Virus record (IMG/VR): IMGVR_UViG_3300017971_000032
Coordinates: 13,501 to 77,500 of that record
Strand: one strand, 5' to 3'
DNA from: a virus
DNA length: 64,000 bases
In this document: positions 501-21,161 of the stretch, in pieces
Layout of the letters: every line of letters starts with the position of its first letter
How positions within the stretch are numbered: position 1 is the stretch's first letter
Notes under the pieces: generated by a model
Databases searched by the model: none
What the model was told of the DNA's origin: nothing
Seen by the model: the letters and a program-made list of their open reading frames with translations, nothing else
Position numbers and translations under genes: made by a program

Positions 501-1340
501 TTGATGTACACTTGGCAGACATTTGGCCGGGAATTGATAGAGACTGAAGACCTGGATCCAGTGTACGTCATGCTAGTGGATTCCAAAGCGCTTATGAATG
601 ATAATCTGTTGAAGCGCTGGTTGCTGGCATATTGGTGCTATTACAGTTGCGGTGTGGCCTCGCGCATAGCGGAGTCGGATGACTTTTATGCATCCATGTG
701 GCAGGGCATTCATGAGAAGTGGCCCAGAGGGATGGAGCGTCGGTACTTCTGGGGTCGGCAGGCTGAGAATGCAATCCAATATCTCCAAGAGTGGGGTGAG
801 CCAGAGGCTGTAGTAGATCATATGACAATCCATGATACGTTCCAGGAAGCATCCGATGCCGTTCAAGAGTTTGTGGGGTTTGGGCCTTGGATGGGCTGGA
901 AGATTGTGGACATGGCTGAAAGGGTATTGGCTATTCCGGTTGACTTCTCTGAATCCACGTTAGGCATTTATAAGGATCCAGTTCAAGGTGCAGCGTTCGT
1001 GCGGTTTGGGGATTGGAAGCATCCTATCACTGAGGCTGAGTTGGATGAAGAAGTCCAGCGCCAGGTGGAGGAGTTCAAAGATCTATTGGCGCCACCATTC
1101 TATGATAGGCCACCTAATATCCAAGAAGTTGAGACTAATTTATGCAAGGCTAAGGCATCATTCAAGGGATTTTACCCGATGGGAAACGACACGTACCATG
1201 TACGTGAGAGCTTGAAGGGTTGGGGTGACTTAGCTCAGGAGCTGTTAGGGTGGTGCCCTAGGATGCGGGATGGGTGGGTGGATGAGGACGGCAACTTATT
1301 GCGGGCGAACAGGGTAGAGGTGGTGGAGACATATGGCTGA
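501..1340 (+). CDS. Amino acid:DNA transferase (alpha-glutamyl/putrescinyl thymine pyrophosphorylase family, clade 2-like)
   Basis: DLDPVY, RWLLAYWCYY, WPRGMERRYF, HhH-like GFGPWMGWK and NIQEVETNLCK motifs; neighbours are radical SAM, PLP enzyme and kinase genes. Confidence 0.75.
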   Translation: MMYTWQTFGRELIETEDLDPVYVMLVDSKALMNDNLLKRWLLAYWCYYSCGVASRIAESDDFYASMWQGIHEKWPRGMERRYFWGRQAENAIQYLQEWGEPEAVVDHMTIHDTFQEASDAVQEFVGFGPWMGWKIVDMAERVLAIPVDFSESTLGIYKDPVQGAAFVRFGDWKHPITEAELDEEVQRQVEEFKDLLAPPFYDRPPNIQEVETNLCKAKASFKGFYPMGNDTYHVRESLKGWGDLAQELLGWCPRMRDGWVDEDGNLLRANRVEVVETYG

Positions 1341-2754
1341 TAATGACAATCATGGGGTGCAAGAGTTTCATAGGTTGAATGAGCCTGTGGGTGAGGGTGA
1401 GGATGAGCATGGTCATTATCAGCTCATACCTTTGAGCATGGTGCGTGGAGGCAAGGCCAAGCCTTATAAAGTGTACACGAAGCCGATGAAGCATTTACTC
1501 AGAGACACTACGCCTGCACCCAGAGGCTGGTACAAGCCAAAGCACCCTGAATCTGACCGTGTGCGGGCAAGACCTTGCTACACTGAAGCACTTCTTACCA
1601 CACCCTATGGTGGATTTTGCCCTGTTAATTGCGCCCATTGCTATGTGAATAACGGAACACGCGGATACCGTGCTACAGGATTGCCGGTGGCACATTACAA
1701 ATATCCGGAGGCAATGCGAAAATGGGTTTCTAAGCTGTCTATCTCTGGTGCTGCATATATTACCTCATTCAGTGAACCGTTTCACTTCTTAGAGCCAGAA
1801 TACCACGTTACGCAGAATCTAGCGCAGGTCTTCATTGACGAGGGTTTGCCGATGTTCTTCCTATCGCGCAAGATTCCGCCTGATTGGGCTATGGATGCGT
1901 TGCTTGAAAATCCATATAGCTATATGCAGTGGAGCGTTAACACATCCAACCCCGATCACTACAGGCGATTCTCGCCAGGCAGCTTTAGTTTGGATGAGGT
2001 GTACGAGGCTATACAGCGCTTCCATGACAATCGCATCTTTGTTAGCATTCAATGCAATCCCATCATAGCGGGCATCACCACGCTCCAGGAGATTGTAGAT
2101 TTGGTGTATGAATTGGAGTATGCGGGTGCTGATCACATCATCTTCAAGTTCGTGGAGCAAGTGGCTAACAATCGCAAGGTGCTGCTGGATGCGTTCCACA
2201 GGCGTGGATTGCCGCATGTGGACGCATTTGACAATCTATTCAGCCAAGTGATTGGTGGGGTGTACACGATTAATGAGGATGTGCGTGTGGAATGGCTGGA
2301 AGTGCTGTTGGAGGAAACACGCAAGGCAGGCTTGACCATGAGCTTGTGCTATGAGTACTATGATGATGGTCATGCTGGCGCCAATTTGGCTCCTTACTAT
2401 ACTACGGCGGATCAATGCCATGGGCGTGGGGTGCCTATATTCTATCGTCCTGAGCCTGGAGCACGCTTCCAACCGTTGCCTGGGTGCTACCGCAAGGGTT
2501 GTCTGTATTGTGAGGAGTACGGCACGCGTGTGTGTGAGAATGATAAATTACTAAGCGCTTCAGATTTTCAGTATAAAGATCTGCGCACTATTCAGATCGA
2601 AGGGCACGAGTCTAATTGGGACTTGCCAGATAGTTGTGTCAGTCCTGATGAGCTGACCTTTCACGATAACTGCACATTTTCGGAACGACTACGGTTTGGC
2701 AATCCGAAGCTACAAACGGATGCTGAGATGTGGGGATGGGATGACGAAGTATAA
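1333..2754 (+). CDS. Radical SAM enzyme (SPL-like), DNA base modification
   Basis: CPVNCAHC (CxxxCxxC) motif, C-terminal CYRKGCLYC; gene context. Confidence 0.8.
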   Translation: MADNDNHGVQEFHRLNEPVGEGEDEHGHYQLIPLSMVRGGKAKPYKVYTKPMKHLLRDTTPAPRGWYKPKHPESDRVRARPCYTEALLTTPYGGFCPVNCAHCYVNNGTRGYRATGLPVAHYKYPEAMRKWVSKLSISGAAYITSFSEPFHFLEPEYHVTQNLAQVFIDEGLPMFFLSRKIPPDWAMDALLENPYSYMQWSVNTSNPDHYRRFSPGSFSLDEVYEAIQRFHDNRIFVSIQCNPIIAGITTLQEIVDLVYELEYAGADHIIFKFVEQVANNRKVLLDAFHRRGLPHVDAFDNLFSQVIGGVYTINEDVRVEWLEVLLEETRKAGLTMSLCYEYYDDGHAGANLAPYYTTADQCHGRGVPIFYRPEPGARFQPLPGCYRKGCLYCEEYGTRVCENDKLLSASDFQYKDLRTIQIEGHESNWDLPDSCVSPDELTFHDNCTFSERLRFGNPKLQTDAEMWGWDDEV

Positions 2755-3484
2755 GGTTTGTAATAAGTGGGATATAGACATACCAGATAGTGCATTGGTT
2801 GCGGCTGATGATAATCCGGGCAGTATTGCCAGGCCATATACATATTATATAGACCATAAGTTGGCGGATATAGGATATCAGGCCTGGTGCCGGGAGTACT
2901 TGTTGAATAATTTGGAAGGTGTACATAGTGTAGTGGAGTACTTTGGTGGTATAGGTGTGGATGCATCTATAGTAGAAGGCACATTCGATTTGGAAGAGCA
3001 TGTTTTATTGGATTTGGATGCCGGATGTGTGGACATTTTGCGCAGAAACAATCCAGAAGCGGAGAGAATAATACAAGGTGATTTTGTGGAATATGCTGGC
3101 ATAAGAGCTGATTTGGCTATATGTGATTTTGAACAATTCACGATGCTGCACATTACCAGAAATAGGAATGGCATGCGTGAGGCATTAGGCAAGGTGCTGT
3201 CAGCTTGCGATTGTTGTATAGTAACTGGCTCAGCAATTAGTAGGATGCATCTGAATGTAGATATATACTCTGAGGCTTCTGACATGCTTGTGAGGGACGT
3301 GTTCACATATATGCAAGCCATGTCTCATTGCTTTTATGATTTATATGGTTTCTGTGTGGGCATGGTGGCTTATGGGCCTCATGCATCGTTCATTACACTT
3401 CTTCCTGGCAAGCATGACTTATGCAATGCTGCATGTATAAAGGCTCCTAGTAGTGCTAGGGATAGTTTCAGGAGAATGGGATGA
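2741..3484 (+). CDS. Class I SAM-dependent methyltransferase-like protein
   Basis: VVEYFGGIG (motif I), LLDLD, IIQGDF; start moved to ATG 2741, overlapping the previous gene. Confidence 0.6.
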   Translation: MTKYKVCNKWDIDIPDSALVAADDNPGSIARPYTYYIDHKLADIGYQAWCREYLLNNLEGVHSVVEYFGGIGVDASIVEGTFDLEEHVLLDLDAGCVDILRRNNPEAERIIQGDFVEYAGIRADLAICDFEQFTMLHITRNRNGMREALGKVLSACDCCIVTGSAISRMHLNVDIYSEASDMLVRDVFTYMQAMSHCFYDLYGFCVGMVAYGPHASFITLLPGKHDLCNAACIKAPSSARDSFRRMG

Positions 3485-4350
3485 TGCATGACATGGTTTG
3501 TAGTTGGGAGCCTAGTTCTGGCAATGATAATCTTGTAGTGTCCAACACGCCCTGGGAAGTCTATAAGATAGATGGTGTGCCTGTTCATGTCAAGCGTGAG
3601 GATTTGTGTTGCCCACCTCCTGGGCCCAGTTTCTCTAAGATACGTGGTGTCAAGGCATATTTGGAGGAAGTGCCAAATGATACAGTTGTGGGCGTGTTGG
3701 ACACGATCCATTCCAAGGCTGGTTGGGGTGTGGCGTACGTATGCAATGCCTTGGGCTTAGAGTGCGTGGATTTTTATCCTGTATACAAACATGAGCCTTG
3801 GGAAACTGTGAGGCCTATACAAGCCAAGGCTAAAGAATTGGGAGCCACTTTGTATCCTATGAAGGCTTGGCGCTCCTCAGTGATGTATGGCAGGGCGAAG
3901 AAGATCTTAGATAAGATGGCAGATGATCGGGCACTCATGATGCCTAATGCTCTTAAGCTTCAAGCTACTGTAGATGCTACTGCAGAGGAGGTACGGTTGT
4001 ACACGCCCCAAGAATGGATGAGTGGCACTTGGATAGTATCCATATCGTCTGGCACAATAGCAGCTGGCGTGCTGAAAGGTTTGGGTGGCAATGATAATGT
4101 TTGCGTGATCGCTCATATGGGATATTCACGCAGTTCAGATTATGCCCGCAAGTATATGATAGACATGGCCAAGGGTGATGTACCATCAGACATATTGATA
4201 ATAGATGAAGGGTACGAATACACTGATTCAGTGAAGGAGAGTTGTCCATTTGAATGTAACAAATTCTATGATCTCAAGGCTTGGAAGTGGTTGAAGGGTG
4301 TTGTTGCTTCAATTGACCAACCTGTCATATTTTGGAACATAGGAGATTGA
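3481..4350 (+). CDS. PLP-dependent enzyme (fold type II), likely on-DNA decarboxylase
   Basis: VKREDL...FSKIRG (PLP lysine), SISSGTIAAG, YDLKAWKWL, IFWNIG. Confidence 0.8.
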   Translation: MMHDMVCSWEPSSGNDNLVVSNTPWEVYKIDGVPVHVKREDLCCPPPGPSFSKIRGVKAYLEEVPNDTVVGVLDTIHSKAGWGVAYVCNALGLECVDFYPVYKHEPWETVRPIQAKAKELGATLYPMKAWRSSVMYGRAKKILDKMADDRALMMPNALKLQATVDATAEEVRLYTPQEWMSGTWIVSISSGTIAAGVLKGLGGNDNVCVIAHMGYSRSSDYARKYMIDMAKGDVPSDILIIDEGYEYTDSVKESCPFECNKFYDLKAWKWLKGVVASIDQPVIFWNIGD

Positions 4351-4351
4351 C

Positions 4352-4600
4352 ATGGACATTACCAGCATCAGGGCTGAAGGTTCGGACAAGCATGTTGTAA
4401 TCAATGTGGATGGCACTGGTGAGGATTTATCCAAGTTGGGTGTGAATATCAGCGCTTTGAGATATGATCAGTGGTTCAATGTAGATTTGCAGGTATACCC
4501 ATCTACCTTGGACAAGATCATGCATGTCGAAGCTATTCCGCAGGAGCAGAGAGATCACATTAGACAGTTGGTGGAGGCAGGACATGGCGACGAAAGCTAA
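4352..4600 (+). CDS. Hypothetical protein
   Basis: Fills the operon gap; GGAG upstream. Confidence 0.55.
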   Translation: MDITSIRAEGSDKHVVINVDGTGEDLSKLGVNISALRYDQWFNVDLQVYPSTLDKIMHVEAIPQEQRDHIRQLVEAGHGDES

Positions 4601-4766
4601 TGATCAAGGATTTGAGGATGGCTTGTTGGGCAGACGCAGGCGCAACAGGCACAGATTTGAGCCGGAGAAGGCAGCTGACTACGATACTGGCTACGATGAT
4701 GCCGTGTTGAGATTGAAGGAGATTGGGCGTGGCAGGCCAGTGCGTGTGCGACATTTGACTGGATGA
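4584..4766 (+). CDS. Small hypothetical protein (GFEDG...YDTGY pattern)
   Basis: GGAGG RBS before ATG 4584; tightly packed in the operon. Confidence 0.5.
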   Translation: MATKANDQGFEDGLLGRRRRNRHRFEPEKAADYDTGYDDAVLRLKEIGRGRPVRVRHLTG

Positions 4767-4770
4767 TAAT

Positions 4771-5367
4771 ATGGCCCTACTAGGTATATATGGCCCGCAT
4801 GCAGTAGGTAAGACTACTGCTATGGACAGACTAATTGATAAAGTGGAAGGCAGGCCTGTCACTATCATCAATGCTGATAACAATCTGGAGCGCTGGTGGA
4901 ATGATAACAGTCTTGAGGAGATGCGCCACAAAGGTCGTGGTTGGTGGAAGGGCAAGGCTGAGGGCAAGCGTGCGCTGTGTGCAGACCTTATAGCTGATGA
5001 TATGCGCTTATGGGTGCTGGAGAGTGTGCGCTTCGACACTCACAAGGGCATTGCCCAAGCATATCAGGACTATGATGGTGGAGCACATGTGATATTCTTG
5101 GTTGCACGTTGGGATGTATTCGAATCATTCATGATAGAGCGCAACGAAGCTAATGGCAGAGAGTTCAATTATGATTATTGGACGCAATCCAAGCTGGCCT
5201 ATGAAGGATATGCTAGGTACATCAATCAGGCTCACAAGTACTTCGATCCATATGGAGTGCCATATGATGTAATTGAGGTCAGTCATGACCGGCATGAGTG
5301 GTCGGAGATTGATGAGCTAATTTGGATGCAAGTGATGAAGCCGTTGGATAGGTGGTATAATGGCTGA
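4771..5367 (+). CDS. P-loop nucleotide/DNA kinase
   Basis: N-terminal Walker A GPHAVGKTT; NMP-kinase-like length. Confidence 0.7.
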   Translation: MALLGIYGPHAVGKTTAMDRLIDKVEGRPVTIINADNNLERWWNDNSLEEMRHKGRGWWKGKAEGKRALCADLIADDMRLWVLESVRFDTHKGIAQAYQDYDGGAHVIFLVARWDVFESFMIERNEANGREFNYDYWTQSKLAYEGYARYINQAHKYFDPYGVPYDVIEVSHDRHEWSEIDELIWMQVMKPLDRWYNG

Positions 5368-5515
5368 GATTGTAATGAGTGTGATCCTATATCTGGCAGC
5401 TAAATGTTTGATATGGATAGGGTTGTTGCCAGACACTGAATCGGCAATTTTGCTATTATTGTGCCTAGTGTTTGTAGTACTGTCAAACCTCAATTTGTCA
5501 GGGGATTCAGCATGA
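5360..5515 (+). CDS. Small membrane protein (51 aa, absent from the ORF track)
   Basis: Two hydrophobic stretches; overlaps the previous stop and ends in an ATGA overlap with the next gene. Confidence 0.55.
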   Translation: MAEIVMSVILYLAAKCLIWIGLLPDTESAILLLLCLVFVVLSNLNLSGDSA

Positions 5516-6147
5516 AGCTTGTTCAGATAAAGGGTAGCAATGGTTCAGGAAAGACCACTATAGTCAAGCAGATGCTGGAGTTGGATCCAGATGCTTACTA
5601 TTTGGAATATGATGGCATGATAATCGCAACTGTCATGCCTACGGTGCGGTGGATTGCTGTAGGCAAGTATGATCTTGAATCGAAGATGGGTGGTTGTGAT
5701 AGGTTGTCTAGTGTGGACAAAGTGAAGGATGCTATAGACAGATCGTTGGATTGGGCATGTGAGTTGTCTGATATGGAACCTATGTATGGGATTGTGTATG
5801 AGGGTATGATGATAAGCACCATTAAGACGACTTTCTATGATTATGCTGTCTTAATGGCAAGTCGTTATGATGTGGATCCGTTGTTCGTAATATTAAGCGC
5901 TTCTCCGAAAGGGTGTATGCATCGCATACAAGATCGTGGTACAGCACGCAAAGACCTTAACCATGATAATGTGGCTAACAAGTGTTTGATGGTAAGACGT
6001 CATGCCTTAACGTATGACCCTGAGCTTGTGAGGTGGATGGATGTGGAGCGTATACCAGAGGCTTATATGTTACAAGCCTTTGCGGCATTGGTAGGAGATC
6101 ATGATTTGGTTGCCAGGTTGGTCATAGGAGCAGATTGGGGTGAATAA
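5512..6147 (+). CDS. 5-hydroxymethyluracil DNA kinase-like P-loop kinase
   Basis: QIKGSNGSGKTT, GKY...GGCD, IVYEG motifs; context. Confidence 0.75.
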   Translation: MKLVQIKGSNGSGKTTIVKQMLELDPDAYYLEYDGMIIATVMPTVRWIAVGKYDLESKMGGCDRLSSVDKVKDAIDRSLDWACELSDMEPMYGIVYEGMMISTIKTTFYDYAVLMASRYDVDPLFVILSASPKGCMHRIQDRGTARKDLNHDNVANKCLMVRRHALTYDPELVRWMDVERIPEAYMLQAFAALVGDHDLVARLVIGADWGE

Positions 6148-6895
6148 CATCGAAGTAGGATACATGACCAGTACAGAACATCTCATGTCAATGACAATCT
6201 ATGGTGAATCGTTAGATAGGGATAATGTGCCAACGTTTCCTAATGGTTGGCGTTTAGATCTGTGTGGAGAATGTAATGGGGCCAATGGGGGTTGTCCTGT
6301 AGGCGGGGCACCTCATTATCACCAGCTGAAGTCATCTATCCAAGGCTTTTATGTATTGGTGGTACGCTTTGATATGGTTTGGGCTATCAAATATGGTGGT
6401 GTGGGCAAGGGTGTGAGGCAGTCTAATTACTTCCGCTCTGGGTACGCAGACCGTCTGACAGATTGGTATACATGGAGGCTGTTGCGTAGGCTTGAGGAGA
6501 ATGCTAGTGCTTACAGCTTAGGATGTGGCAATTGTCCCAAATGCTCTCCCAAGAAATGCACTGTCATGACTGGTGCCAAGTGCTTATATCCCGATCAGCG
6601 CAGATACTCAGTAGAGGCTGTGGGTGTGGATTGCTCATCCTTGCACAATATGCTGTTTGGGCATCGTTTGGCTTACTGGTACTATGAGGAAGAATTGCCT
6701 CAATACATGTATCGTTATAGCGGGCTATTTGTGGAGGATGATGTGTGGGATTATGTAGTAGAGGCAGTATTGGCAGATGCTAGTTACAATGACAATCTGC
6801 CTGAGCCGCATGGCTTGCAGAGTGTGGAGTGCGAAGCGCCAGAGGGAGTATATGATGAGGGCATGGCATACCAGGGATACTTGCCCAAGTCCTGA
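6140..6895 (+). CDS. DUF2284-like Cys-rich metal-binding protein
   Basis: GCGNCPKC..KC......CLYPDQRRYSVEAVGVD pattern. Confidence 0.6.
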   Translation: MNNIEVGYMTSTEHLMSMTIYGESLDRDNVPTFPNGWRLDLCGECNGANGGCPVGGAPHYHQLKSSIQGFYVLVVRFDMVWAIKYGGVGKGVRQSNYFRSGYADRLTDWYTWRLLRRLEENASAYSLGCGNCPKCSPKKCTVMTGAKCLYPDQRRYSVEAVGVDCSSLHNMLFGHRLAYWYYEEELPQYMYRYSGLFVEDDVWDYVVEAVLADASYNDNLPEPHGLQSVECEAPEGVYDEGMAYQGYLPKS

Positions 6896-7433
6896 TAATT
6901 ATGTATGCCAAGAATGTGGTTTGTATAAGGGGTTAAATCACCCATTTCAGGGCATGGTAGGCAATGACAATCCACAGATATTGGCGGTGGCAGAGGCTCC
7001 CTGATGTGACACGGAGGAGGTGGGTACCACCTTCATAGGTCGTTCGGGAGAGATACTGCGTAGCGCAATGAAAAAGTTAGGCATGGATGATGTAACAGGT
7101 TATATCAATGTAGTGCGATGTCATCCACCCAACAACAAGTTGCCTGCCAGGTGCGCTAAGTTGTGCGCTAATTTCCTGAGACATGATCTCAAAGCTTTGG
7201 ATGTGGAGGCAGTGATGGCATTTGGAGCTACGGCATCCAAAGCTTTGATGGCACCAGACAAACCTCCGCATGATTGGCCTGGTGCCATATATCAGGTCAA
7301 TGAGATGGCGCATAGACATTTGTTGTTATTGGCATATCACCCAGCATACATTCTTCGTAGGCCTGGTTTGAAGGAGCAGTGGATGAGTGATTTGAGGCGA
7401 TTCAAAGCTATGTGGAGGAGTTGCTATGGCTAA
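6852..7433 (+). CDS. Family 4 uracil-DNA glycosylase-like protein with in-frame TGA at 7002-7004 (recoded codon or pseudogene)
   Basis: Track ORFs 6777-7004 and 7020-7433 share one frame: CQECGL...AEAP*CDTEEVGTTFIGRSG...INVVRCHPP...YHPAYILR; GGAG before ATG 6852. Confidence 0.8.
7016..7034 (+). promoter_or_regulatory. Candidate bacterial SECIS-like hairpin
   Basis: GGAGGTGG-GTA-CCACCTTC begins 11 nt after the in-frame TGA; loop G and U fall at +23/+24 counting from the U of UGA. Confidence 0.45.
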
Positions 7434-7617
7434 GAGACATGTTCAGCAAAGTCTTAAAGTGATTCAGAAAAGGTGTTCTGTATGCGGACGCGGTATGAGA
7501 TGGGAGGCGGTACGTAACAGGTGTGTGAGAGCAGGCACTAATAGAATAGTGCAAGATGGATTGTGGGTTTGCACTAATGCTGAGTGTGGTGGTGACGATG
7601 TTAACAATGAAAAGTGA
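7426..7617 (+). CDS. Small zinc-ribbon protein
   Basis: CSVCG...WVCTNAECG; GGAGG RBS. Confidence 0.55.
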   Translation: MAKRHVQQSLKVIQKRCSVCGRGMRWEAVRNRCVRAGTNRIVQDGLWVCTNAECGGDDVNNEK

Positions 7618-7930
7618 TCAATCTGCCCACATGGCTGACCGTGTCCACGTTGAGGTGGAGCGTTCAAGGTTGGAGAGTATAGCTTACCGTGTCATCAATC
7701 TTGTGATGCGCAAGAATGCGGACTATGGTGACGCGTGGCAACGTCAGGGCATTAACGGAGCCATGGTGCGATTGGCTGACAAGCTTTACCGCATTGACAA
7801 TCTGTCTGATGGGCGTGAGGTGTTGGTGCAGGAGGAAAGGTTGCTGGACACGCTGGTAGATGCTATCGGGTATGCTATGTTAGGCATATTATACCTTCAA
7901 GATGCGGGAGTGTTGGATGACAGTGAATGA
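7598..7930 (+). CDS. DUF1599 / nucleotide-modification-associated domain 1 (MazG-like fold)
   Basis: RKNADYGDAW, VRLADKLYRI, DTLVDAIGYA; start uncertain (7598 or 7607). Confidence 0.75.
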   Translation: MLTMKSDQSAHMADRVHVEVERSRLESIAYRVINLVMRKNADYGDAWQRQGINGAMVRLADKLYRIDNLSDGREVLVQEERLLDTLVDAIGYAMLGILYLQDAGVLDDSE

Positions 7931-10535
7931 TAATATTGGTTGCGCAGCCTGTGGTTTATGTGATCAATGCAAGTGCCCTAATATGCCCCCAGGCGAATAC
8001 TTCGATGACTACTGCGATATAATGTTTGTGGGGGAGGCTCCTGGCGCTACGGAGGATGATCAAGGCACCCCATTCGTAGGCAGATCTGGGAAGTTGTTAA
8101 GGGATGCTGTAGATTCTATAGGTCTATATAAATACGGGTACGTGTTTACTAATGTCGTACGCTGTCGCCCGCCCAACAATAAGACACCTACTAAGCGCCA
8201 AATAGGCTACTGTTTGCCTATATTGAAGGATGAGATTGAGCAATACCAGCCTAGGTTGATAATCTTGTTAGGTGGCACTCCGCTTAATGCGGTTCTAGGT
8301 GAGTCAATCGTCACCAATTGGCGAGGTACATTGATTGAACGTGATGGGTTAACATACTTGCCAGTGTTTCATCCGGCATACATCCTTCGCAATACATCAG
8401 CACTAGAAGAATGGGTGAAGGATCTTGAAAAAGCCAAATCCTTTTTGAGTGGTGATGTAGGTACTGGCAATGTGTCAGATGAGTATGAGTTGACGTTGAT
8501 AGAGACTGATGCACAAGCCCAAGATATGTACAAGACTATCAAGTCTATAGGCTTTTGTGCCTGGGACACGGAGACCAATGGGTTGCGATATGGGGACGAG
8601 CTGGTGATGATGAGCTTTGCAGTGGATGAGCCTGTCAAGCGTGCGTGGGCTGTACCAGTGCCGGGTTGCAATAAGGTGTGCAAGAGATTGTTGCTGGATC
8701 CTGACGTGTTGAAGGTGGGGCACAACATTAAATTTGATGTGTTGGCCATACATGGCAATTGGAATGTAGAAGTGCAGGGTATTGTAGGTGACAGCATGTT
8801 AGCGTCTTATGTGCTAGATCCAGTGCCAGGACGTCATGGTCTCAAGCCTTTGGCGGGCAGACATTTGGGTATGTATGATTATGCCAAGAAGCTGGAGGAT
8901 TATCAGGCATTACGCAAGGACACTAATCCTAAGTATGGTGGGGATTTGAGATTGGTGCCTACGGAAGTGTTAGCGGAGTATGCTGCTTTAGATGCTGTGG
9001 CCACATTAGAGTTGGAGTGGCGATTGTTGGATGATATGGAGGATGAGCAAAAGATAGTGTATGAGCAACTGCTCATGCCTGCTTCTGCTACATTCAGCCA
9101 TTTGGAAATGAATGGTGTTGTGATTGATGAATATTTAGTGGAGCGTTACAAAGCTATTTATGCAGAAGCCAGGGATGCTAGATTAGACGAGTTAAGATCT
9201 GATGAAATGATAGTAGCGTATCATAAGTTCAAGGTCAGACATGGGTATGATAAATTTGAGTTCAATCCTAATTCATCCTATCAGATGAGGGATGTGTTGT
9301 ATGGTTGTGTTGTATGTCCTGAGTGCCATAAGACTGTTGCTAATGAAAATGTGAATCAGGGGCGTAGGCATGAGTGTGCTAAGTGTGATACTAGATTTGC
9401 GGCAACCAAAAGCACAATGTTCAAAGGCTATGGATTAGGTATTACAGTCAAAACCAGTACTGGCAGGCCTTCCACTGGTTGGGATGTATTGAAAGAGTAT
9501 GTGGAGGAGTTGCCAATGCTGACAGTATATCGTCAGTACAAGTTGTTGGGTAAGATGCTGTCCACATATTTGGAACCGGCTATAGGGTGGAAGGATAAAG
9601 ACGGGCGTGTAAGGTCTGATTATAAGATTCACGGCACGGATACTGGCCGTGCCAGTAGTCGCAATCCCAATCTCCAAAACATTCCCACGCCTGAGAAGGA
9701 GCCTGGTACACTTTTGCAGTACTTGCCTATTAAGAACATCTTCACTTGCACTTGGCCAGAGGGTGGATGTTTGCTGTGTGCGGACTATAGTGGTATGGAG
9801 TTGCGCACGATGGCATCAGTATCAGAGTGCCAAGGTATGATAGACATATTCCTGCGCGGAGAAGATTTGCATTCTATCGTGACTGAGTTCTTGTATGATA
9901 TAAAGCGCGAGGATTATACACCAGAGGAGTGGAAGCCAATACGGTATAGAGCTAAGTGGACTAATTGGACGTTGCTGTTCGGTGGGAGTGCATACACACT
10001 CCACAGGTTGTACGGACTTGATAAAGAAGAGGCTGACCGTTTAGTCAATAGGTATTATGACTTGTTCCCGGAGGTATTGGAATACAAAGAGCGCACATTG
10101 GCTTTTGCGCGTGAACATGGATATGTAAGATCTATGTTTGGAAGGCGCAAATATTTGCCTTATATCAATGATTGGCATGATGGTAAACGTAAGGCAGACG
10201 AGCGTGCTGGCATAAATATGCCTATACAGAGTTCAGCCTTTGATGTGTTGTTATGCGCAATGATAATATTGGATGAGTGCATGTGTGATGCTAATATGCG
10301 TTCCTTGATAGTCAATACAGTCCATGACTCAATTATGTTTGATGTGTATCCTGGTGAGTTGGAGGAGTTAGCAGGTTTGTGTGGGGATGTAATGGAAAAA
10401 GTAACGAGTGTGTATGGGCCTGAAAGATTTCCAGGGCTGGACTTCTCGTGGTTCACCGTTCCACTGGTGGTGGACATGGAGATTGGCACACATTATGGAT
10501 CTTTGACAAAGTGGGGGGCAGAGAGTGGATTATAG
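7917..10535 (+). CDS. polA: Family A DNA polymerase with N-terminal UDG-4 domain and 3'-5' exonuclease
   Basis: GEAPGATED/HPAYILR (UDG); DTET, GHNIKFD, YAALD (exonuclease); TGRASSRNPNLQNIP, ADYSGMELR, RYRAKWTNW, VHDS (polymerase). Confidence 0.95.
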   Translation: MTVNDNIGCAACGLCDQCKCPNMPPGEYFDDYCDIMFVGEAPGATEDDQGTPFVGRSGKLLRDAVDSIGLYKYGYVFTNVVRCRPPNNKTPTKRQIGYCLPILKDEIEQYQPRLIILLGGTPLNAVLGESIVTNWRGTLIERDGLTYLPVFHPAYILRNTSALEEWVKDLEKAKSFLSGDVGTGNVSDEYELTLIETDAQAQDMYKTIKSIGFCAWDTETNGLRYGDELVMMSFAVDEPVKRAWAVPVPGCNKVCKRLLLDPDVLKVGHNIKFDVLAIHGNWNVEVQGIVGDSMLASYVLDPVPGRHGLKPLAGRHLGMYDYAKKLEDYQALRKDTNPKYGGDLRLVPTEVLAEYAALDAVATLELEWRLLDDMEDEQKIVYEQLLMPASATFSHLEMNGVVIDEYLVERYKAIYAEARDARLDELRSDEMIVAYHKFKVRHGYDKFEFNPNSSYQMRDVLYGCVVCPECHKTVANENVNQGRRHECAKCDTRFAATKSTMFKGYGLGITVKTSTGRPSTGWDVLKEYVEELPMLTVYRQYKLLGKMLSTYLEPAIGWKDKDGRVRSDYKIHGTDTGRASSRNPNLQNIPTPEKEPGTLLQYLPIKNIFTCTWPEGGCLLCADYSGMELRTMASVSECQGMIDIFLRGEDLHSIVTEFLYDIKREDYTPEEWKPIRYRAKWTNWTLLFGGSAYTLHRLYGLDKEEADRLVNRYYDLFPEVLEYKERTLAFAREHGYVRSMFGRRKYLPYINDWHDGKRKADERAGINMPIQSSAFDVLLCAMIILDECMCDANMRSLIVNTVHDSIMFDVYPGELEELAGLCGDVMEKVTSVYGPERFPGLDFSWFTVPLVVDMEIGTHYGSLTKWGAESGL

Positions 10536-11022
10536 CACTGGCGTCATTAGGGTTGTGTTAGGTGATTATGAAACGGAAGTTGACGTGGATGAAATCACTG
10601 GCATTGACACTCAAGATTTGACACATGAATTTGCTCAACAAGCATCATTGTTGGCTTATGTGTCAACGTTGGCTGCTGAGGCTGAGGCTGAGTGGAACAA
10701 TAGCAAACAAGCGTTTGATAGGGCCAAAGCAGAGATATACCAGGCAGTCAGGTCTGCTATGTTGGCAGATGGTGATAAGGTTACAGAGGCTAGAATAGAT
10801 GCTGCCGTAGTTCAGTCACGTGGGTATGTGGATGCCTCTGTATACGAGGCGGATGCTAGGTTGCAATATCGCATACTGCGCGGCTTAGTAGATGCTATGA
10901 TGGCTAAGGGTAGTATGTTACAGAGTTTGGGCGCGCATTTGCGATCTGAGCTGGAACAAACCGATATGGTCACACGCGTGAAGGGCATTATTGATGGCCG
11001 CACGCCTGGTGCCAGTAGATGA
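10525..11022 (+). CDS. UvsY-like recombination mediator (helical protein)
   Basis: Helical, KVTEARIDAAV pattern; lies between polymerase and SSB. Confidence 0.5.
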   Translation: MDYSTGVIRVVLGDYETEVDVDEITGIDTQDLTHEFAQQASLLAYVSTLAAEAEAEWNNSKQAFDRAKAEIYQAVRSAMLADGDKVTEARIDAAVVQSRGYVDASVYEADARLQYRILRGLVDAMMAKGSMLQSLGAHLRSELEQTDMVTRVKGIIDGRTPGASR

Positions 11023-11031
11023 CCGCGCAAA

Positions 11032-11043
11032 CGGTTTAGTATA
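11032..11043 (+). promoter_or_regulatory. Phage promoter-like motif CGGTTTAGTATA (copy 1)
   Basis: Intergenic, upstream of SSB; seven copies found, all intergenic and oriented with the downstream gene. Confidence 0.7.
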
Positions 11044-11104
11044 TCAGGTTCGAGTACATAGCCGATTTGCGGCAGTAGTCTATCATCTATAGTTGGAGGT
11101 AAAA

Positions 11105-11878
11105 ATGTCTAGCAGCAAAGCGTATAAAGACTTGTTGGACAAGATCCAAAGCGTGGATTTGGGCACAAGCGGGTTCTGGAAGCCACCTCAAGGTATGAGT
11201 ACGGTGCGCATCTTGCCACCGGTGGGTGACATGGAGTACTTTTTCATGGAGGTGGGCCAGCACTATGTGGGTGGGCAGAACTATATGTGCCCCAATCTTT
11301 GCACGGAGGGTAAGGAAGGGTGCCCGTTGTGCGACGTCAACGAGGTGCTGTACAAAGCGGGTGAGAAGGATGCAGCCAGTCAGTACCGTGTACGGCGCAG
11401 CTTCTGGATGAACATTATCGTGCGGGGCAGCGAGGGTGATGGCCCACAGATCTTCACCCCAGGAGTGACAATCTTTCGCACAATCGCTTCCATCATCAGT
11501 GACCCGGACTATGGTGATGTCACCGACCTTGATGAAGGGTTCGATATCAAGGTCGTGCGTGATGGCACTGGCCTCAGTACGAAGTATGAAACGCGTGCAG
11601 TGCGCAATCCATCCGAGTTGGGTGACGATGCACAGATTGAGGAGTGGTTAGAGAAGGCCACAGATCTGGATGAGTTCGTCTCTGGCCAGTTGTCTGACAG
11701 CTATGATGATCTAGCCGAGGAGAGTGGTGTGTCCCTTTTCCTGGATGAAGGTGACGTCACGTCCTTGATTGTGGATGCGCCAGAAGAGGACGAGGAGGAG
11801 GAAGCCAGCGCTTCGGATCGCATCCGTGATCGGTTGTCCAGAAGGGGGCAGCATCGGCGCAGCAGGAGTCGCCGTTGA
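11105..11878 (+). CDS. T4 gp32-like single-stranded DNA-binding protein
   Basis: FWKP, VRILPP, QHY..CP......CPLC, YGDVTDLDEGFDI, acidic tail; GGAGGT RBS. Confidence 0.8.
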   Translation: MSSSKAYKDLLDKIQSVDLGTSGFWKPPQGMSTVRILPPVGDMEYFFMEVGQHYVGGQNYMCPNLCTEGKEGCPLCDVNEVLYKAGEKDAASQYRVRRSFWMNIIVRGSEGDGPQIFTPGVTIFRTIASIISDPDYGDVTDLDEGFDIKVVRDGTGLSTKYETRAVRNPSELGDDAQIEEWLEKATDLDEFVSGQLSDSYDDLAEESGVSLFLDEGDVTSLIVDAPEEDEEEEASASDRIRDRLSRRGQHRRSRSRR

Positions 11879-12310: not shown

Positions 12311-12438
12311 GCATGGATCTAACTACTAGTGTAGGGCTGTTCAAATATGGTTGGACGGGTGTGATTATCATTATGATTGTGGCAGTGTCTGTGGGGTTAG
12401 ATTTGCTGAGCAGATATATTAGGAGCAGGTTGGAATGA
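12301..12438 (+). pseudogene. phnE: C-terminal fragment of a PhnE-like ABC permease
   Basis: GGIGMDLTTSVGLFKYGWTGVIIIMIVAVSVGLDLLSRYIRSRLE*; ends in an ATGA overlap with the next gene. Confidence 0.7.
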
Positions 12439-13151
12439 TTGGAATTGTATTAGCAGCCGGCAAATCTGAACGTATGAGTGGTGCAATGAATAAGTGCATC
12501 AAACCTTTGGATGGTGCTGGCCACACGATGTTAGGCAGAGTGATTAGTCAATTGCGCAGCTTGGATGTGGCTCCTGTTGTAGTAGTAGGTTACCAGGCTA
12601 AGGCTGTCATGAAGCGTTACTGTGCCAAGGCCACATTTGTCTACAACCCTGACTATGAATCCACAGGCAGCCTGTATTCTCTTTGGCTGGCGTTGAAAAT
12701 TATATATGATGTCAGTGATGTGGTGCTGGCTTCTGGATCTAATATAATTACAGCCTACACCTTGCGCAATATGATGCGCATTGAGGTGCCGAAAGGTGAC
12801 AACATTGCTGTCATGTATCCTTACCCTCATGGCCAAGCTGGTGCCCGCAACATATATCATCGTGTAGTGACTTCTGTGGAGAATGGCGCATTAAGGCATG
12901 ACATAGCAGAAACAGCTCCTCGTGATGAGTGTCCCGAATGGTGTGATGAGAGCATGGCATACTCTCAATTTGGGATAGCCAACAGATTATATTTGTTGCA
13001 TCACATACCGTATGTGCCTGGTTGGCGTACTGCTAGTGTAGGCAAAGCTTTAGCAGGATTCCAGGCTATGAATGTGGGTGTACATGACACGCTAGATGTT
13101 AACACACAGGCAGATTTTAGGTTGGCCAAGGAATGGTTTGGATATGGGTAA
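12435..13151 (+). CDS. NTP transferase (LicC/phosphocholine-cytidylyltransferase-like)
   Basis: IVLAAGKSERM..NKC, VVVGYQA, YNPDYESTGSLYSL, DVNT..D. Confidence 0.8.
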   Translation: MIGIVLAAGKSERMSGAMNKCIKPLDGAGHTMLGRVISQLRSLDVAPVVVVGYQAKAVMKRYCAKATFVYNPDYESTGSLYSLWLALKIIYDVSDVVLASGSNIITAYTLRNMMRIEVPKGDNIAVMYPYPHGQAGARNIYHRVVTSVENGALRHDIAETAPRDECPEWCDESMAYSQFGIANRLYLLHHIPYVPGWRTASVGKALAGFQAMNVGVHDTLDVNTQADFRLAKEWFGYG

Positions 13152-13917
13152 GATCGCTATCATAGCTGCGGCTGGATGGAAGGGTACCAGTTCAGTCTTT
13201 CCGGAGATTGACAAAGGCATACCTGAGCCGTTGTTGCCTTGCCACGGACAGACGTTGCTGTCTAGGCAAGTGTGTCAGTTGAGGTGTGCTGGGTATTACA
13301 CCATTGCGGCCATAGGACAACCAGGTAGCATATACGCGCAGTGGGCAAGCTTAAGGTTGCGTGAAGGTCATATTGATGTGTCAGGCACTTATGAAGGCAC
13401 TAGACCGCCTGGGCCATGGACTTGGCAGAGGGTGGATTATGTTAGATCTATAGGGGCTGTGCCTGTGTTAATACAGCACCCTGGCTGTCATAACAGCTTC
13501 GATACGGTTACTCAGTGTATGGATATGGTAGGCTATAGTCAGTGGGATGAATTACTGGTAACCTTTGGAGATTATATATTTAGTAATGAGTTACTGACTG
13601 CAATGTTGGAGTTGCCTGCCCCAGTCCAGATTTGGATGGGTGAAGTCAAGGGTGCGCTTCATCATAAGTTCTTGAGATTGAATGTGGAATGTGCCAAGGC
13701 TTATTATGAGTTGCCATCATACGACCAAAACAAAGTAGGACACACATCTCACAATGATAAAGTGCGCAAGGTCTTGGAGGAATTAGGAGCGCCAGTTATA
13801 AATGCGGAACAAGCATTCAAACGTATATACAAACATGGCGAGTATGGTTGGATGGATATTGACTTTCCTTCCAATTATACCAGATTGAGACAGTGGGTAA
13901 AGGATGGTAAGATATGA
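13144..13917 (+). CDS. Divergent nucleotidyltransferase
   Basis: IIAAAG, IPEPLLP..GQTLL, TFGDYIF, MDIDFPSNY. Confidence 0.65.
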   Translation: MGKIAIIAAAGWKGTSSVFPEIDKGIPEPLLPCHGQTLLSRQVCQLRCAGYYTIAAIGQPGSIYAQWASLRLREGHIDVSGTYEGTRPPGPWTWQRVDYVRSIGAVPVLIQHPGCHNSFDTVTQCMDMVGYSQWDELLVTFGDYIFSNELLTAMLELPAPVQIWMGEVKGALHHKFLRLNVECAKAYYELPSYDQNKVGHTSHNDKVRKVLEELGAPVINAEQAFKRIYKHGEYGWMDIDFPSNYTRLRQWVKDGKI

Positions 13918-14789
13918 TAGCTGCTGGATCTGTGAACGTAACGTATCCTGTTCGTATACATGAGGATGCGGACATTTGGGTGTCAGACCATTTGTCCATA
14001 GGCCAGTACACAGTCATCAAGTCCGGGTTCAAGGCCAAGTGTCGCAGTTTGACAATCGGACGTCATTGCTATATCCACGAGGGTGTAGAGATCGGGTTTG
14101 GCGGATGTATGGGCTTGAATGCGCATGTTCACATAGGTGATTATGTAGGCATCTTCCAAAACACGCATATTAACTGTGCGGAGCCTGTCTATATCGGTGA
14201 TTGCTGCGGTCTGGGGCAGGAAGTGAAAATCTGGACGCACGGCACCTGGTTGCCGGTGGCGGAGGGATTCCCTCCGCAGAAGCAGGAGCCGGTGCGCATT
14301 GGTGATAAAGTATGGCTACCCGCACGCACGCAGGTGTTGGCAGGTGTGGAGATTGGTGATAATGTGGTAGTTGGCATCAACTCACTGGTTAACAAGTCAT
14401 TGCCATCAGGATGCTTTGCTGCTGGCATTCCTGCCAAAGTGATAAAAGAGAATGTATATCCTAAGCCTTTGACCACTGAGGAGTTAATGCAAGTTGCACG
14501 TGAATTGTGCGCTGGATATTTGCCCATAGCGCAGGATAAGGGGTTTCAGCCAGATTGTCTTGCCCCGTATTTGGATACAGACAATGGGCATGTGTACATA
14601 GACTTCCAGATGAGTGAGGGCGAGGGTGCTGTAGAGTTTGATTTGAGTGACCCTAGTGCTACATATTTGCCTGGCATTAGTGAGTATGAGGAGGATTTTA
14701 GGGATTATTTGCGTCGCAACGGTTTCAAGTTTCACAATGGCGGTTTCTTCAAATCCATGTTGCCGACAAGGTTCACTGAGGTACGTTGA
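13914..14789 (+). CDS. Hexapeptide-repeat (LbH) sugar acyltransferase
   Basis: IGRHCYI/IGDYVGI/IGDKVWL/IGDNVVV repeats, IWTH, AGIPAKVIK. Confidence 0.9.
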   Translation: MIAAGSVNVTYPVRIHEDADIWVSDHLSIGQYTVIKSGFKAKCRSLTIGRHCYIHEGVEIGFGGCMGLNAHVHIGDYVGIFQNTHINCAEPVYIGDCCGLGQEVKIWTHGTWLPVAEGFPPQKQEPVRIGDKVWLPARTQVLAGVEIGDNVVVGINSLVNKSLPSGCFAAGIPAKVIKENVYPKPLTTEELMQVARELCAGYLPIAQDKGFQPDCLAPYLDTDNGHVYIDFQMSEGEGAVEFDLSDPSATYLPGISEYEEDFRDYLRRNGFKFHNGGFFKSMLPTRFTEVR

Positions 14790-15448
14790 TGTCGAAAGCC
14801 GAATTTATGGGATACAAAGATGTAATATGCCTGTCCCCACATCCTGATGATGTAGAATATGGCATGTATGGCACGGTGTTGTCCTGTCCTGGCACTACCT
14901 TTTGGATTATCGTAATGAGCCAGGGTGCTCCATCTAATCCTACCTATGGTAAGGTGAGGCTAGAAGAAGTCACCAGGTGCTGGAAGGGTGTGCACAATAA
15001 GACATTAATATTCACAAATGCTAGCAGTCTAATGTCTTTGGCGGAGCGTGAGTGGATTGGCAAGTTGGAGCATGATTATTCAGATGTGCTAGGTATATGT
15101 AGTACTATGATAGTGCCGCCGTTAGATGATGACCATTATGAGCATTCGCTAGTGTCCAGAGTAGGTCGTGCTATTGCCAGATCTAATGCCTATGGGTTGA
15201 TAGAATATCGCACTGCCAGTGCTAGGGAAAGTTGGACACCTAATTTAGTGGTGGATATTACAGACAATTATGTTGCCAAGCGTCAGGCTATGGTGAATTT
15301 TCAAAGTCAGGCCAAGCATGGCTACTTTTCGCAAGCTGGTTTGAATGCCTTTCACATCCATTATGGCGCATCCAGGCGTGGGTATGGTACATGGCATGAG
15401 TTGTTCAGAATAGTGATGATGTATATGGGGGGAGGCAATAATGATTAG
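14786..15448 (+). CDS. PIG-L/LmbE family deacetylase
   Basis: SPHPDDVEYG, DDHYEH, VDIT...KR.A...FQSQ. Confidence 0.9.
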   Translation: MMSKAEFMGYKDVICLSPHPDDVEYGMYGTVLSCPGTTFWIIVMSQGAPSNPTYGKVRLEEVTRCWKGVHNKTLIFTNASSLMSLAEREWIGKLEHDYSDVLGICSTMIVPPLDDDHYEHSLVSRVGRAIARSNAYGLIEYRTASARESWTPNLVVDITDNYVAKRQAMVNFQSQAKHGYFSQAGLNAFHIHYGASRRGYGTWHELFRIVMMYMGGGNND

Positions 15449-16109
15449 CAGACCTAATGGGCAGGCTTCTGTAGATGCCATAAAGCATTCTGAGCATATA
15501 CCAACGTATGGCAGTCAGTTGATGTTGTTCCATGATGCTATACGTAGTGCTTTAAAAGGCACGCGTGGGGCGATAGTTGCAGAGTTTGGCGTGTACAAGG
15601 GCAAGACGTTGCAAATGATTAGTGACAGACTGCGATGGCATAACATACATTGCAATCTGTATGGCTTTGACTCATTTCAAGGCTTGCCGGAGGCATACAC
15701 GCCTTATTATGGCAAAGGGCACTTCAATGTGAGTGAATCAGATATGGAACAGGTGCGGCGTGACGCTATGGCTTGTGATGCGTGTCTTATTGAAGGTTAT
15801 TTTCAAGACACGCTTGAGTCATTTTTGTTTACGCATCCAGGCCAGTTCAGATTCGTGCATATGGATGCTGATTTATATCAGCCTACTAAATATGTTTTGA
15901 GTACATTGATGGATTGGCATAGACTATTGCCAGGCTCAGTTATACAGTTCGATGAAATGTTTTATGTCAAGCCAGATGATGGACGTTGGTATTGGGATGA
16001 ATATAAGGCTTGGACAGAGTTTGTATACAGGTATAACATCAAGTATGAGTGGATAGGATCCTACACTCAACGAGGGGCTGTTATGTTGTGGGAGGTAGGG
16101 AATGAGTGA
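15441..16109 (+). CDS. TylF/MycF-family O-methyltransferase
   Basis: EFGVYKG, GFDSFQGLPE, GYFQDTL, HMDADLY, FDE. Confidence 0.9.
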   Translation: MISRPNGQASVDAIKHSEHIPTYGSQLMLFHDAIRSALKGTRGAIVAEFGVYKGKTLQMISDRLRWHNIHCNLYGFDSFQGLPEAYTPYYGKGHFNVSESDMEQVRRDAMACDACLIEGYFQDTLESFLFTHPGQFRFVHMDADLYQPTKYVLSTLMDWHRLLPGSVIQFDEMFYVKPDDGRWYWDEYKAWTEFVYRYNIKYEWIGSYTQRGAVMLWEVGNE

Positions 16110-17238: not shown

Positions 17239-17836
17239 GGTTGCATTGGTGTGCCCTTCTTTGAATCTGTGCAGGGCGCAAGATACGTTAGTTAAGGCTG
17301 AACATACAGCAGGCGTGCCTGTGGAGTTGATCGCATCGCATGACAAACATGGTGAAGGGTTTACTAAGGCAGTGAACAGAGGATGGCGTGCGGCATTGGA
17401 TGTTGACGATGTCACGCACTTGACTGTAATCAATGACGACACGCACCCTGACCGGATTGAGACAGGATGGCTCAGGCGATTAGTAGAGGCTTTGGAAAGT
17501 CACACCAATTTTGGAGTATGCGGGCCAAGTGGCCCATGTCGCACGGATCCTCAGAAGTCAGGCAAGCCTGGAATGCCTAAGCGTGTGGTAGGTGTCCAGC
17601 CCTATAGTCTAGCATTTTTCATGGTGGTTATGAAGCGCCAAGTGATGGATGATGTAGGGTTGTTGGACGAGAATTATATACATTATGGCAGTGATAATGA
17701 CTGGTGCCATAGGGCTGCCAAGGCTGGTTGGCGCGTGGTATGGGTGCAGGATGTGTATATGCCTCACGATGTGGGATCTATCAAACATGAGTGGCGTGCA
17801 CATGATAGATCACTATACCTTAACAAATGGGGTTGA
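17219..17836 (+). CDS. GT2-family glycosyltransferase
   Basis: GFTKAVNRG, INDDT, VGLLDENY.HYGSDNDWCHRA. Confidence 0.85.
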   Translation: MTSQLAKVALVCPSLNLCRAQDTLVKAEHTAGVPVELIASHDKHGEGFTKAVNRGWRAALDVDDVTHLTVINDDTHPDRIETGWLRRLVEALESHTNFGVCGPSGPCRTDPQKSGKPGMPKRVVGVQPYSLAFFMVVMKRQVMDDVGLLDENYIHYGSDNDWCHRAAKAGWRVVWVQDVYMPHDVGSIKHEWRAHDRSLYLNKWG

Positions 17837-18492: not shown

Positions 18493-18494
18493 GT

Positions 18495-21048: not shown

Positions 21049-21052
21049 GAAA

Positions 21053-21064
21053 CGGTTTAGTATA
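21053..21064 (+). promoter_or_regulatory. Phage promoter-like motif CGGTTTAGTATA (copy 2)
   Basis: Exact copy, immediately upstream of the tRNA-like RNA. Confidence 0.7.
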
Positions 21065-21066
21065 GC

Positions 21067-21145
21067 GAGGCTAACAGTTGACCGCTGGGCAGGTTGCCGG
21101 AAGCCAAGGGTTCGAATCCCTTGGCGGCGGTCAACTGTTAACCTC
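21067..21145 (+). ncRNA. tRNA-like structured RNA with a canonical T-loop (not a complete tRNA)
   Basis: 15-bp closing stem (+4 bp), GGCA-GGT-TGCC mini-hairpin, GCCAAGGG-TTCGAAT-CCCTTGGC T-arm; no anticodon arm. Confidence 0.65.
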
Positions 21146-21161
21146 AAAGAAAAGGAGTGCT

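Follow-up and report, generated by a model that had tools for sequence, protein, structure and literature searches.

A putative M6-type thymidine-hypermodification operon with a candidate tailoring methyltransferase in a complete phage genome

Layout of the locus

We analysed 64,000 nucleotides of phage DNA (the window, to which coordinates refer unless otherwise noted), positions 13501-77500 of the 77,500-bp IMG/VR virus record IMGVR_UViG_3300017971_000032, concentrating on a gene cluster at 501-7930 that appears to encode a thymidine-hypermodification pathway. The record is rated complete and carries direct terminal repeats of 123 bp; its genome is labelled G000. Our main subject is a gene here called X, wedged among predicted orthologues of the pathway genes of phage M6, whose product we propose as a further tailoring enzyme; a second subject is the source of the 5-hydroxymethyluracil (5hmU) on which such a pathway would act. 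The genes that carry the argument, which include enzymes dependent on S-adenosylmethionine (SAM) or pyridoxal phosphate (PLP), are the following.

501-1340, + strand: amino acid:DNA transferase (ADDT, clade 2 aGPT-Pplase), predicted orthologue of M6 gp51; PF18724, 2.7e-18
1333-2754, + strand: radical SAM enzyme, predicted orthologue of M6 gp53 (glycinyl-thymine isomerase); PF04055; phrog_9252, 3.7e-85
2741-3484, + strand: gene X, class I SAM-methyltransferase-fold protein, proposed tailoring N-methyltransferase; profile and predicted fold
3481-4350, + strand: PLP-dependent enzyme, predicted orthologue of M6 gp52 (the decarboxylase giving 5-(2-aminoethyl)deoxyuridine, 5-NedU); phrog_7093, 1e-75
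5461-6147, + strand: 5-hydroxymethyldeoxyuridine (5-hmdU) DNA kinase (5-HMUDK); PF18748, 9.2e-22

The hypermodification genes sit in the replication module of G000, the whole of which is on the + strand. Upstream lie helicases, a primase, a sigma-like gene and then the gene for a SAP-domain protein; downstream lie a fusion of uracil-DNA glycosylase (UDG), exonuclease and PolA, a gp32-like single-stranded DNA-binding protein, RecA and a flap endonuclease. Positions 501-7930 open a single operon of tightly overlapping genes, which reaches approximately 11022. Every gene named for this stretch in a first-pass annotation, made from the sequence alone, was found on the + strand and where it had been placed, and the tight coupling that it described is borne out by junctions that overlap by 4-14 nt or lie 1-4 nt apart (-8, -14, -4, +1, +4 and -8 nt). 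A phage promoter motif, CGGTTTAGTATA, is present at two sites, window -609 and 11032 (genome 12891 and 24532), with no copy between. Since the motif brackets the block and has no internal copy, the genes from SAP to the polymerase, together with the 165-aa gene after it, probably constitute one transcription unit, in which the hypermodification genes would be co-transcribed with the polymerase. Megablast of the cluster against cultured phages gave no match, and single-protein scans of IMG/VR with X, the kinase, the PLP enzyme and a radical SAM-SPASM enzyme encoded elsewhere in the window gave no close relatives.

Four predicted orthologues of the M6 pathway

For the core comparison we used tblastn with the proteins of phage AN14 (species Pseudomonas virus M6), to which the ADDT, radical SAM enzyme, PLP enzyme and kinase were 37, 38, 50 and 27% identical, respectively. 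Pfam matches were above cut-off for ADDT (67 bits against PF18724, cut-off 26.2), Radical_SAM and HMUDK (77.9 bits against PF18748, cut-off 27). The best cultured matches of the ADDT were phage M6 itself (36.9% identity) and PaMx11-type phages (35-36%), and no ViI-type (serine) transferase was among its cultured-phage matches; we infer a glycine-type transferase orthologous to M6 gp51, its glycine specificity being a prediction from these alignments. The radical SAM enzyme aligned with the M6-species protein over 410 aa, with CPVNCAHC facing CTVGCAFC (a CxxxCxxC motif; that of M6 gp53 is quoted in PMC8989533). The PLP enzyme aligned over 280 aa with the M6-type decarboxylase and keeps the Schiff-base lysine of FSKIRGV; it was assigned by phrog_7093, its Pfam PALP match falling under cut-off (30.7 vs 35 bits). 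The Walker A motif of the kinase aligned with that of the M6-species kinase, and the protein is about 30% identical to ViI-type kinases.

Lee et al. demonstrated the functions of M6 gp51-54 in vitro (PMC8989533). In the reactions described there, the kinase yields the phosphorylated nucleoside 5-PmdU, gp51 with glycine gives N-alpha-glycinyl-thymine (N-alpha-GlyT), gp53 converts this to C-alpha-GlyT and gp52 produces 5-NedU; gp52 requires the primary amine unmasked by gp53 (PMC8989533). The same four enzyme families as in the 5-NedU pathway of M6, a Yuavirus (PMC5889632, PMC8989533), are present in our cluster at 27-50% identity and with catalytic motifs kept, which supports the M6-type reading already given in the first-pass annotation. 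In both phages the pathway genes adjoin the DNA polymerase gene and have a UDG-like gene nearby, although gene order differs. M6 has a clade 1 aGPT-Pplase (gp55 type), a ThyA-type dUMP hydroxymethylase and a phosphohydrolase that G000 lacks, whereas G000 has X, a second P-loop kinase, a DUF2284-like protein and a DUF1599 protein beyond the M6 set. PaMx11 gp46-49 (glycine transferase, flavin-dependent lyase, acetyltransferase and kinase) share the kinase and glycine-transferase core followed by tailoring of the appended amine; that tailoring is by flavin lyase and acetyltransferase in PaMx11, and in G000 it would be by radical SAM and PLP enzymes and a methyltransferase-fold enzyme.

Gene X encodes a methyltransferase-fold protein

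X probably starts with the ATG at 2741, in line with its homologues. The protein has no Pfam, PHROG or NCBIfam match and no tblastn match in 50,697 phage records. A word-indexed search found only three homologues, at approximately 70% identity, and a full HMMER scan extended the family, which is uncharacterised and has members of about 240 aa, to 292 representative clusters. A profile of 76 of its sequences, compared with the PDB, matched SAM methyltransferases (EEF2KMT, 1.7e-5; KsgA, 2e-4), and a few family members match the RrnaAD and TRM5 Pfam families weakly. The AlphaFold2 model built from the 76-sequence alignment (predicted local distance difference test score 94.3, predicted TM-score 0.91) has the Rossmann-like, seven-stranded class I methyltransferase fold, and Foldseek with this model returned methyltransferases only, the top matches being nucleic-acid methyltransferases that act on amines (such as Trm1, Trm5, RlmKL, RsmD-like proteins, TrmM, PrmC and METTL5), with the closest, Trm1, Trm5 and RsmD-like proteins, acting on exocyclic amines. 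The first-pass annotation had noted a methyltransferase-like gene between the radical SAM and PLP genes; the predicted fold agrees, and the gene has no counterpart in M6 or in the closest relative of G000 that we found (G009, below).

Within motif I (EYFGGIG), G77 and G79 are invariant in the 76 sequences; among close homologues D98 is invariant and E73, D100 and D121 are nearly so. Asp136 is at least 90% conserved family-wide and directly follows strand 4, the site of the (D/N)PP(Y/F) motif in Trm1, Trm5 and RsmD-type amino-methyltransferases, where X instead has D-F-x-x-F. Sequence identity to these enzymes is only 9-13%, and X has its own N-terminal beta-hairpin and helices but none of their RNA-binding domains. 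Because of the profile matches, the confidently modelled fold and the conserved motif residues, X is very probably an active SAM-dependent transferase.

The methyltransferase domain of MnmC, and MnmM, N-methylate nm5U to mnm5U in tRNA. The chemistry is like that proposed here for X, namely SAM-dependent N-methylation of a primary amine on a uracil C5 side chain, but their substrate is RNA and its chain is one carbon shorter; neither enzyme is among the top fold matches of X, which does not exclude the relationship. A parallel with MnmC is drawn for PaMx11 gp47 in PMC8989533.

Gene X recurs among hypermodification genes

We examined up to 10 kb on each side of X homologues in eight IMG/VR loci and one contig of a Dehalococcoidia metagenome-assembled genome (MAG). 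In five of the nine (four of the eight IMG/VR loci, and the MAG contig) the X homologue lies among ADDT, radical SAM and PLP homologues, beside the PLP or the radical SAM gene. A complete 101.9-kb genome (L004) has the order kinase, ADDT, radical SAM, a 287-aa unknown, X, PLP, clade 1 Pplase and ThyA-like gene, the 287-aa open reading frame (ORF) having no homologue elsewhere. The orders are P-loop kinase, ADDT, PLP, X, radical SAM in L003 (ADDT and kinase by Pfam); X, a small ORF, radical SAM, ADDT in L006; and ADDT, radical SAM, a gap, X, PLP, kinase in the MAG contig (L034). Locus L010 has two X paralogues, one abutting the radical SAM gene; these lie at 1305-2075 and 10991-11572 of a single hypermodification region, where successive methylations are possible. 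Genome G002, among those with X in the cluster, also encodes a ThyA-like enzyme and an HMUDK. Since the loci differ in gene order and in polymerase type, the linkage of X is not simply the common ancestry of one block.

The closest relative that we found, G009 (77,754 bp, complete), has the ADDT, radical SAM and PLP genes at 54-66% identity (ADDT 59%) and lacks X. Because X recurs in these differing loci while G009 has the trio without it, X appears to be a mobile accessory of radical SAM/PLP-type clusters. Directly upstream of the G009 ADDT are two N6_N4 DNA methylase genes (L013 14632-16643, - strand), and none is at that position in G000. The radical SAM homologues of G009 (L013 reverse complement 4502-7009) and L003 (4482-6887) are long, at approximately 800-835 aa; in each, the match is interrupted after about residue 102 by an insertion of about 1 kb, which may be an intein or an inserted domain.

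A lineage-conserved kinase module and other genes of the operon

The remaining genes needed below are these.

start at -587, 3' part at 1-396, + strand: SAP-domain protein, acidic, low-complexity, 327 aa; PF02037 SAP, 3.1e-10; first gene after the promoter motif at -609
4352-4600 and 4524-4766, + strand: two small overlapping ORFs, 82 and 80 aa, function unassigned
4771-5367, + strand: second P-loop kinase-fold protein, Walker A GPHAVGKT; weak AAA_14 and uridine-kinase N-terminus matches
6140-6895, + strand: DUF2284-like protein, seven invariant Cys; PF10050, 2.5e-8
6777-7433, + strand: family-4 UDG-like gene with in-frame TGA at 7002-7004, candidate selenoprotein; PF03167, 1.8e-13, 3' part
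7556-7930, + strand: DUF1599 ('nucleotide modification associated domain 1') protein; PF07659, 1.8e-7
7902-10535, + strand: UDG / 3'-5' exonuclease / family A DNA polymerase fusion, same operon; PF03167, PF01612, PF00476
21847-22947, + strand: radical SAM-SPASM enzyme, between a glycosyltransferase island and recA; PF04055, PF13186; PqqE- and SkfB-like

In G009 the order is SAP gene, P-loop gene (29% identity) and a single 519-aa ORF (L012 9194-10753) with both HMUDK and DUF2284 domains; this module is about 12 kb from the ADDT-radical SAM-PLP block. At least six more protein clusters, on contigs of up to 82 kb, have the HMUDK-DUF2284 fusion at 41-45% identity to that of G009; in a seventh the protein is nearly the same as in G009, at 96% identity (fusion proteins P0161-P0167). 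The DUF2284-like gene is constant in the metagenome loci of this lineage, beside the SAP gene, the DUF1599 gene and the UDG-PolA gene, and some of these loci have no kinase in the stretch examined. The SAP gene likewise keeps its place upstream of the kinase module in G009 and the metagenome loci. Sequence comparison thus suggests that P-loop, HMUDK and DUF2284 genes form an older, lineage-conserved module into which the ADDT-radical SAM-X-PLP block was inserted in G000. The first-pass annotation had taken the second kinase and the DUF2284-like protein as possible extra steps of the cluster; they belong instead with HMUDK to this module, which in G009 stands apart from the other pathway genes.

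The DUF2284-like protein scores 34.3 bits against PF10050 (cut-off 25) over profile positions 91-139 only, and its nearest Atlas clusters are viral DUF2284 clusters. Its invariant cysteines (C42, C45, C52, C132, C140, C148 and C165) suggest that it probably binds Fe-S or another metal, and the protein is predicted to be a functional partner of the kinase. Complex prediction for HMUDK with the DUF2284-like protein scored 0.02, a value that bears on binding in neither direction. Distant DUF2284 matches in three human-gut 'Bacteriophage sp.' contigs were unaccompanied by pathway genes. The second P-loop protein has adenylate-kinase-like structural neighbours (TM-scores 0.64-0.72) and homologues directly upstream of HMUDK in G009 (29%) and in L014 (59%). 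The idea that it is a paralogue of HMUDK was rejected, there being no similarity; conjecturally, it could make a pyrophosphate form of 5-PmdU or phosphorylate a nucleotide.

The UDG-like gene, listed at 7020-7433 in the first-pass annotation, does encode a member of the UDG superfamily, but its real frame is 6777-7433, interrupted by a TGA at 7002-7004. Its 3' part scores 51 bits against PF03167, and at family 4 motif A, GE(A/G)PG, it reads AEAP-TGA-C (AEAP-TGA-CDTEEVG), so that the TGA stands at the second glycine of the GEAPG found in family 4 UDGs and in the polymerase's own UDG domain. The same TGA, with protein sequence conserved on both sides, is found in all five homologues: G000, L014 (2495-3060), L015 (524-1085), L016 (500-1060) and G009 (reverse complement of L013, 8562-9086). 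Starting 14 nt 3' of the TGA is a hairpin of 8 bp whose loop carries GU at +23/+24; in G009 one of its pairs is compensated (G-C to U-A). Genome-wide reassignment of TGA was rejected, since 48 of the 81 ORFs end in TGA, the commonest true stop. The pattern fits selenocysteine (Sec) insertion and makes the gene a candidate phage selenoprotein with adjacent Sec and Cys. It travels with the hypermodification genes, beside the PLP gene in G009 and beside the DUF2284 gene in G000.

The missing source of 5hmU

The first-pass annotation had seen no dUMP hydroxymethylase in the window; this holds, and extends to the whole complete genome. We found no match in G000 to ThyA (PF00303), ThyX/Thy1 (PF02511) or Tet_JBP (PF12851), no candidate at E<=1 for PF12851 or for the 2-oxoglutarate (2OG) oxygenase families PF13640, PF13759 and PF13532, and no tblastn match to the M6-species hydroxymethylase; dCMP deaminase, dUTPase and MazG also gave no match. 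As a positive control, the same ThyA search recovered divergent ThyA-like genes in G002 and G008. The 77.5-kb genome thus has no recognisable nucleotide-pool enzymes (ThyA, ThyX, dCMP deaminase, dUTPase, MazG) yet encodes a base-hypermodification pathway. The earlier annotation had suggested that a dUMP hydroxymethylase and a dCMP deaminase be sought elsewhere in the genome, and would have given up its reading in a genome with no 5hmU synthesis gene; as far as known enzymes go, G000 is such a genome. We do not take this as a refutation, because a second complete genome, G009, shows the same pattern (no ThyA and no PF12851 match) with the pathway genes conserved. X as a replacement for ThyA was rejected, as the two occur together in G002 and G008 and are both missing from G009.

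Metavirome clusters for thymidine hypermodification described in PMC8989533 use TET/JBP in place of a dUMP hydroxymethylase. In these clusters, as in G000, no ThyA-type enzyme accompanies the kinase and transferase genes, implying that 5hmU is made on the DNA; the difference is that neither G000 nor G009 has a Tet_JBP match, nor does G000 have another 2OG-oxygenase match. Because G000 is without any pool-level enzymes, 5hmU is most likely generated on DNA here too, by an unrecognised enzyme. Five genes of unknown function are common to G000 and the G009 module: those for the P-loop protein, the DUF2284-like protein, the UDG-like protein, a 165-aa phrog_2058 protein and the radical SAM-SPASM enzyme. 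The leading candidate for 5hmU formation, a catalytic role that is hypothetical, is the DUF2284-like protein, because relatives carry it joined to the 5-hmdU DNA kinase in a single ORF. The radical SAM-SPASM enzyme, with a 43% homologue beside gp32 in G009, is another candidate for the missing step. The SAP-domain protein as a hidden dioxygenase was rejected, given its acidic, low-complexity sequence.

Speculatively, the lineage might have a third way of making 5hmU on DNA, oxygen-independent and neither ThyA-type nor TET/JBP, with a conserved metal or selenium protein as the catalyst; the M6-type pathway and N-methylation by X would then lead to a new base. We hold this fuller scheme to be unlikely as a whole; the candidates would be the DUF2284-like protein foremost, with the radical SAM-SPASM enzyme and the Sec-containing UDG-like protein as alternatives.

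Proposed pathway and alternatives

We read the cluster, with a probability of roughly 55%, as a post-replicative M6-type thymidine-hypermodification operon in which X finally N-methylates aminoethyl-uracil to a base not yet described in DNA. 5-HMUDK (5461-6147) would phosphorylate 5-hydroxymethyl-uracil in the phage DNA, the ADDT (501-1340) would swap the phosphate for glycine to give N-alpha-glycinyl-thymine, the radical SAM enzyme (1333-2754) would isomerise this to the C-alpha-linked form, and the PLP enzyme (3481-4350) would decarboxylate it to 5-(2-aminoethyl)uracil; X (2741-3484) would then most likely methylate the freed primary amine, once or more, to an N-methylated aminoethyl-uracil. 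The first four steps are predicted by orthology to enzymes characterised in vitro, and the fifth is suggested by the fold, the conserved motifs and the recurrent gene neighbourhood. N-methylation must come after the PLP step, because that step needs a free primary amine (PMC8989533), and methylation of the 5-NedU amine after decarboxylation would be the simplest and most economical role for X. X is thus most likely a tailoring enzyme, and probably one that N-methylates aminoethyl-uracil.

Several observations count against this proposal. At the level of sequence no characterised methyltransferase matches X, whose substrate is deduced from context only, and the complete genome lacks a known 5hmU-forming enzyme. 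Four of the nine X-family loci have no ADDT, radical SAM, PLP or kinase homologue in the stretch examined, and the ordinary N6/N4 DNA methylases directly upstream of the ADDT in G009 show that methyltransferases can co-localise with such genes without tailoring a base. The last two points, together with fold neighbours that are RNA and protein methyltransferases of many substrates, favour an alternative in which plain 5-(2-aminoethyl)uracil is made as in M6 and X is an unrelated DNA adenine/cytosine or RNA methyltransferase co-localised with anti-restriction genes. We consider this unlikely: X is wedged between the radical SAM and PLP genes with overlaps of 14 and 4 nt, it lies beside one or the other in five otherwise unrelated loci of differing gene order, no DNA-methylase Pfam family matches X or the 76 family members, and its top 50 fold matches include no DNA methyltransferase (though this does not amount to exclusion).

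X might instead transfer a 3-amino-3-carboxypropyl or aminopropyl group, from SAM or decarboxylated SAM, to leave a polyamine-like adduct. Its structural neighbours include TYW2 (rank 13), the nocardicin 3-amino-3-carboxypropyl transferase (rank 35) and AzeJ (rank 40), one family member weakly matches the spermidine-synthase Pfam family, and the polyamine-bearing thymines putrescinyl-T and diaminopropanyl-T are known (PMC13458397). True methyltransferases nevertheless predominate among the top neighbours and include the best of them, and no gene for a supply of decarboxylated SAM was seen in G000, which makes such a transfer quite improbable. We give still less credence to an inert cluster in G000, a decaying or exapted remnant whose kinase has no substrate. 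That view is prompted by the lack in G000 of ThyA-type, ThyX, TET/JBP and tested 2OG-oxygenase enzymes and of dCMP deaminase, dUTPase and MazG; yet the ORFs are all intact with their catalytic motifs kept, the same genes occur at 39-66% identity in G009, which also lacks ThyA and TET/JBP, and the kinase-DUF2284 fusion is kept across clusters 41-45% identical to that of G009. This conservation points to long-term selection, and therefore to a substrate.

Hypermodified thymines shield phage DNA from restriction enzymes and other nuclease defences, and their pathways are a source of new DNA-modifying enzymes. Tailoring enzymes in the accounts of PMC13458397 and PMC8989533 are, as far as those accounts were available to us, radical SAM isomerases, PLP decarboxylases, flavin lyases and acetyltransferases, with no methyltransferase among them. 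If N-methylation by X is correct, this methyltransferase-fold family, recurrent in hypermodification clusters, would represent a further class of tailoring enzyme and probably yield a natural DNA base that is new. In G000 and G009, both complete, the downstream pathway is retained without a known 5hmU maker, and the question of an alternative route is testable with five conserved candidate genes, one of which is fused in relatives to the kinase that consumes 5hmU.

Neighbouring genes and minor observations

The two small ORFs at 4352-4600 and 4524-4766 have no family match and no homologue in any locus examined. Homologues of the DUF1599 protein, at 55-73% identity, precede the polymerase gene in L014, L016, L019 and L026. 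Our literature search on DUF1599 and DUF2284 found no function, and PDB sequence searches with the DUF1599 protein, the second P-loop protein and the DUF2284 profile yielded no helpful match.

A 9.4-kb island (12435-21875) separates the gp32-like gene from the radical SAM-SPASM gene; it is missing from the syntenic G009, in which the radical SAM-SPASM gene comes straight after gp32. The island has genes for a MobA-like nucleotidyltransferase, a hexapeptide acyltransferase, a PIG-L deacetylase, a TylF-like methyltransferase, approximately six GT2 or TOD1-like glycosyltransferases and three unknowns, and its target could be DNA, the virion or the host envelope. Homologues of the TOD1-like glycosyltransferase adjoin DNA methylases in Cellulophaga phages.

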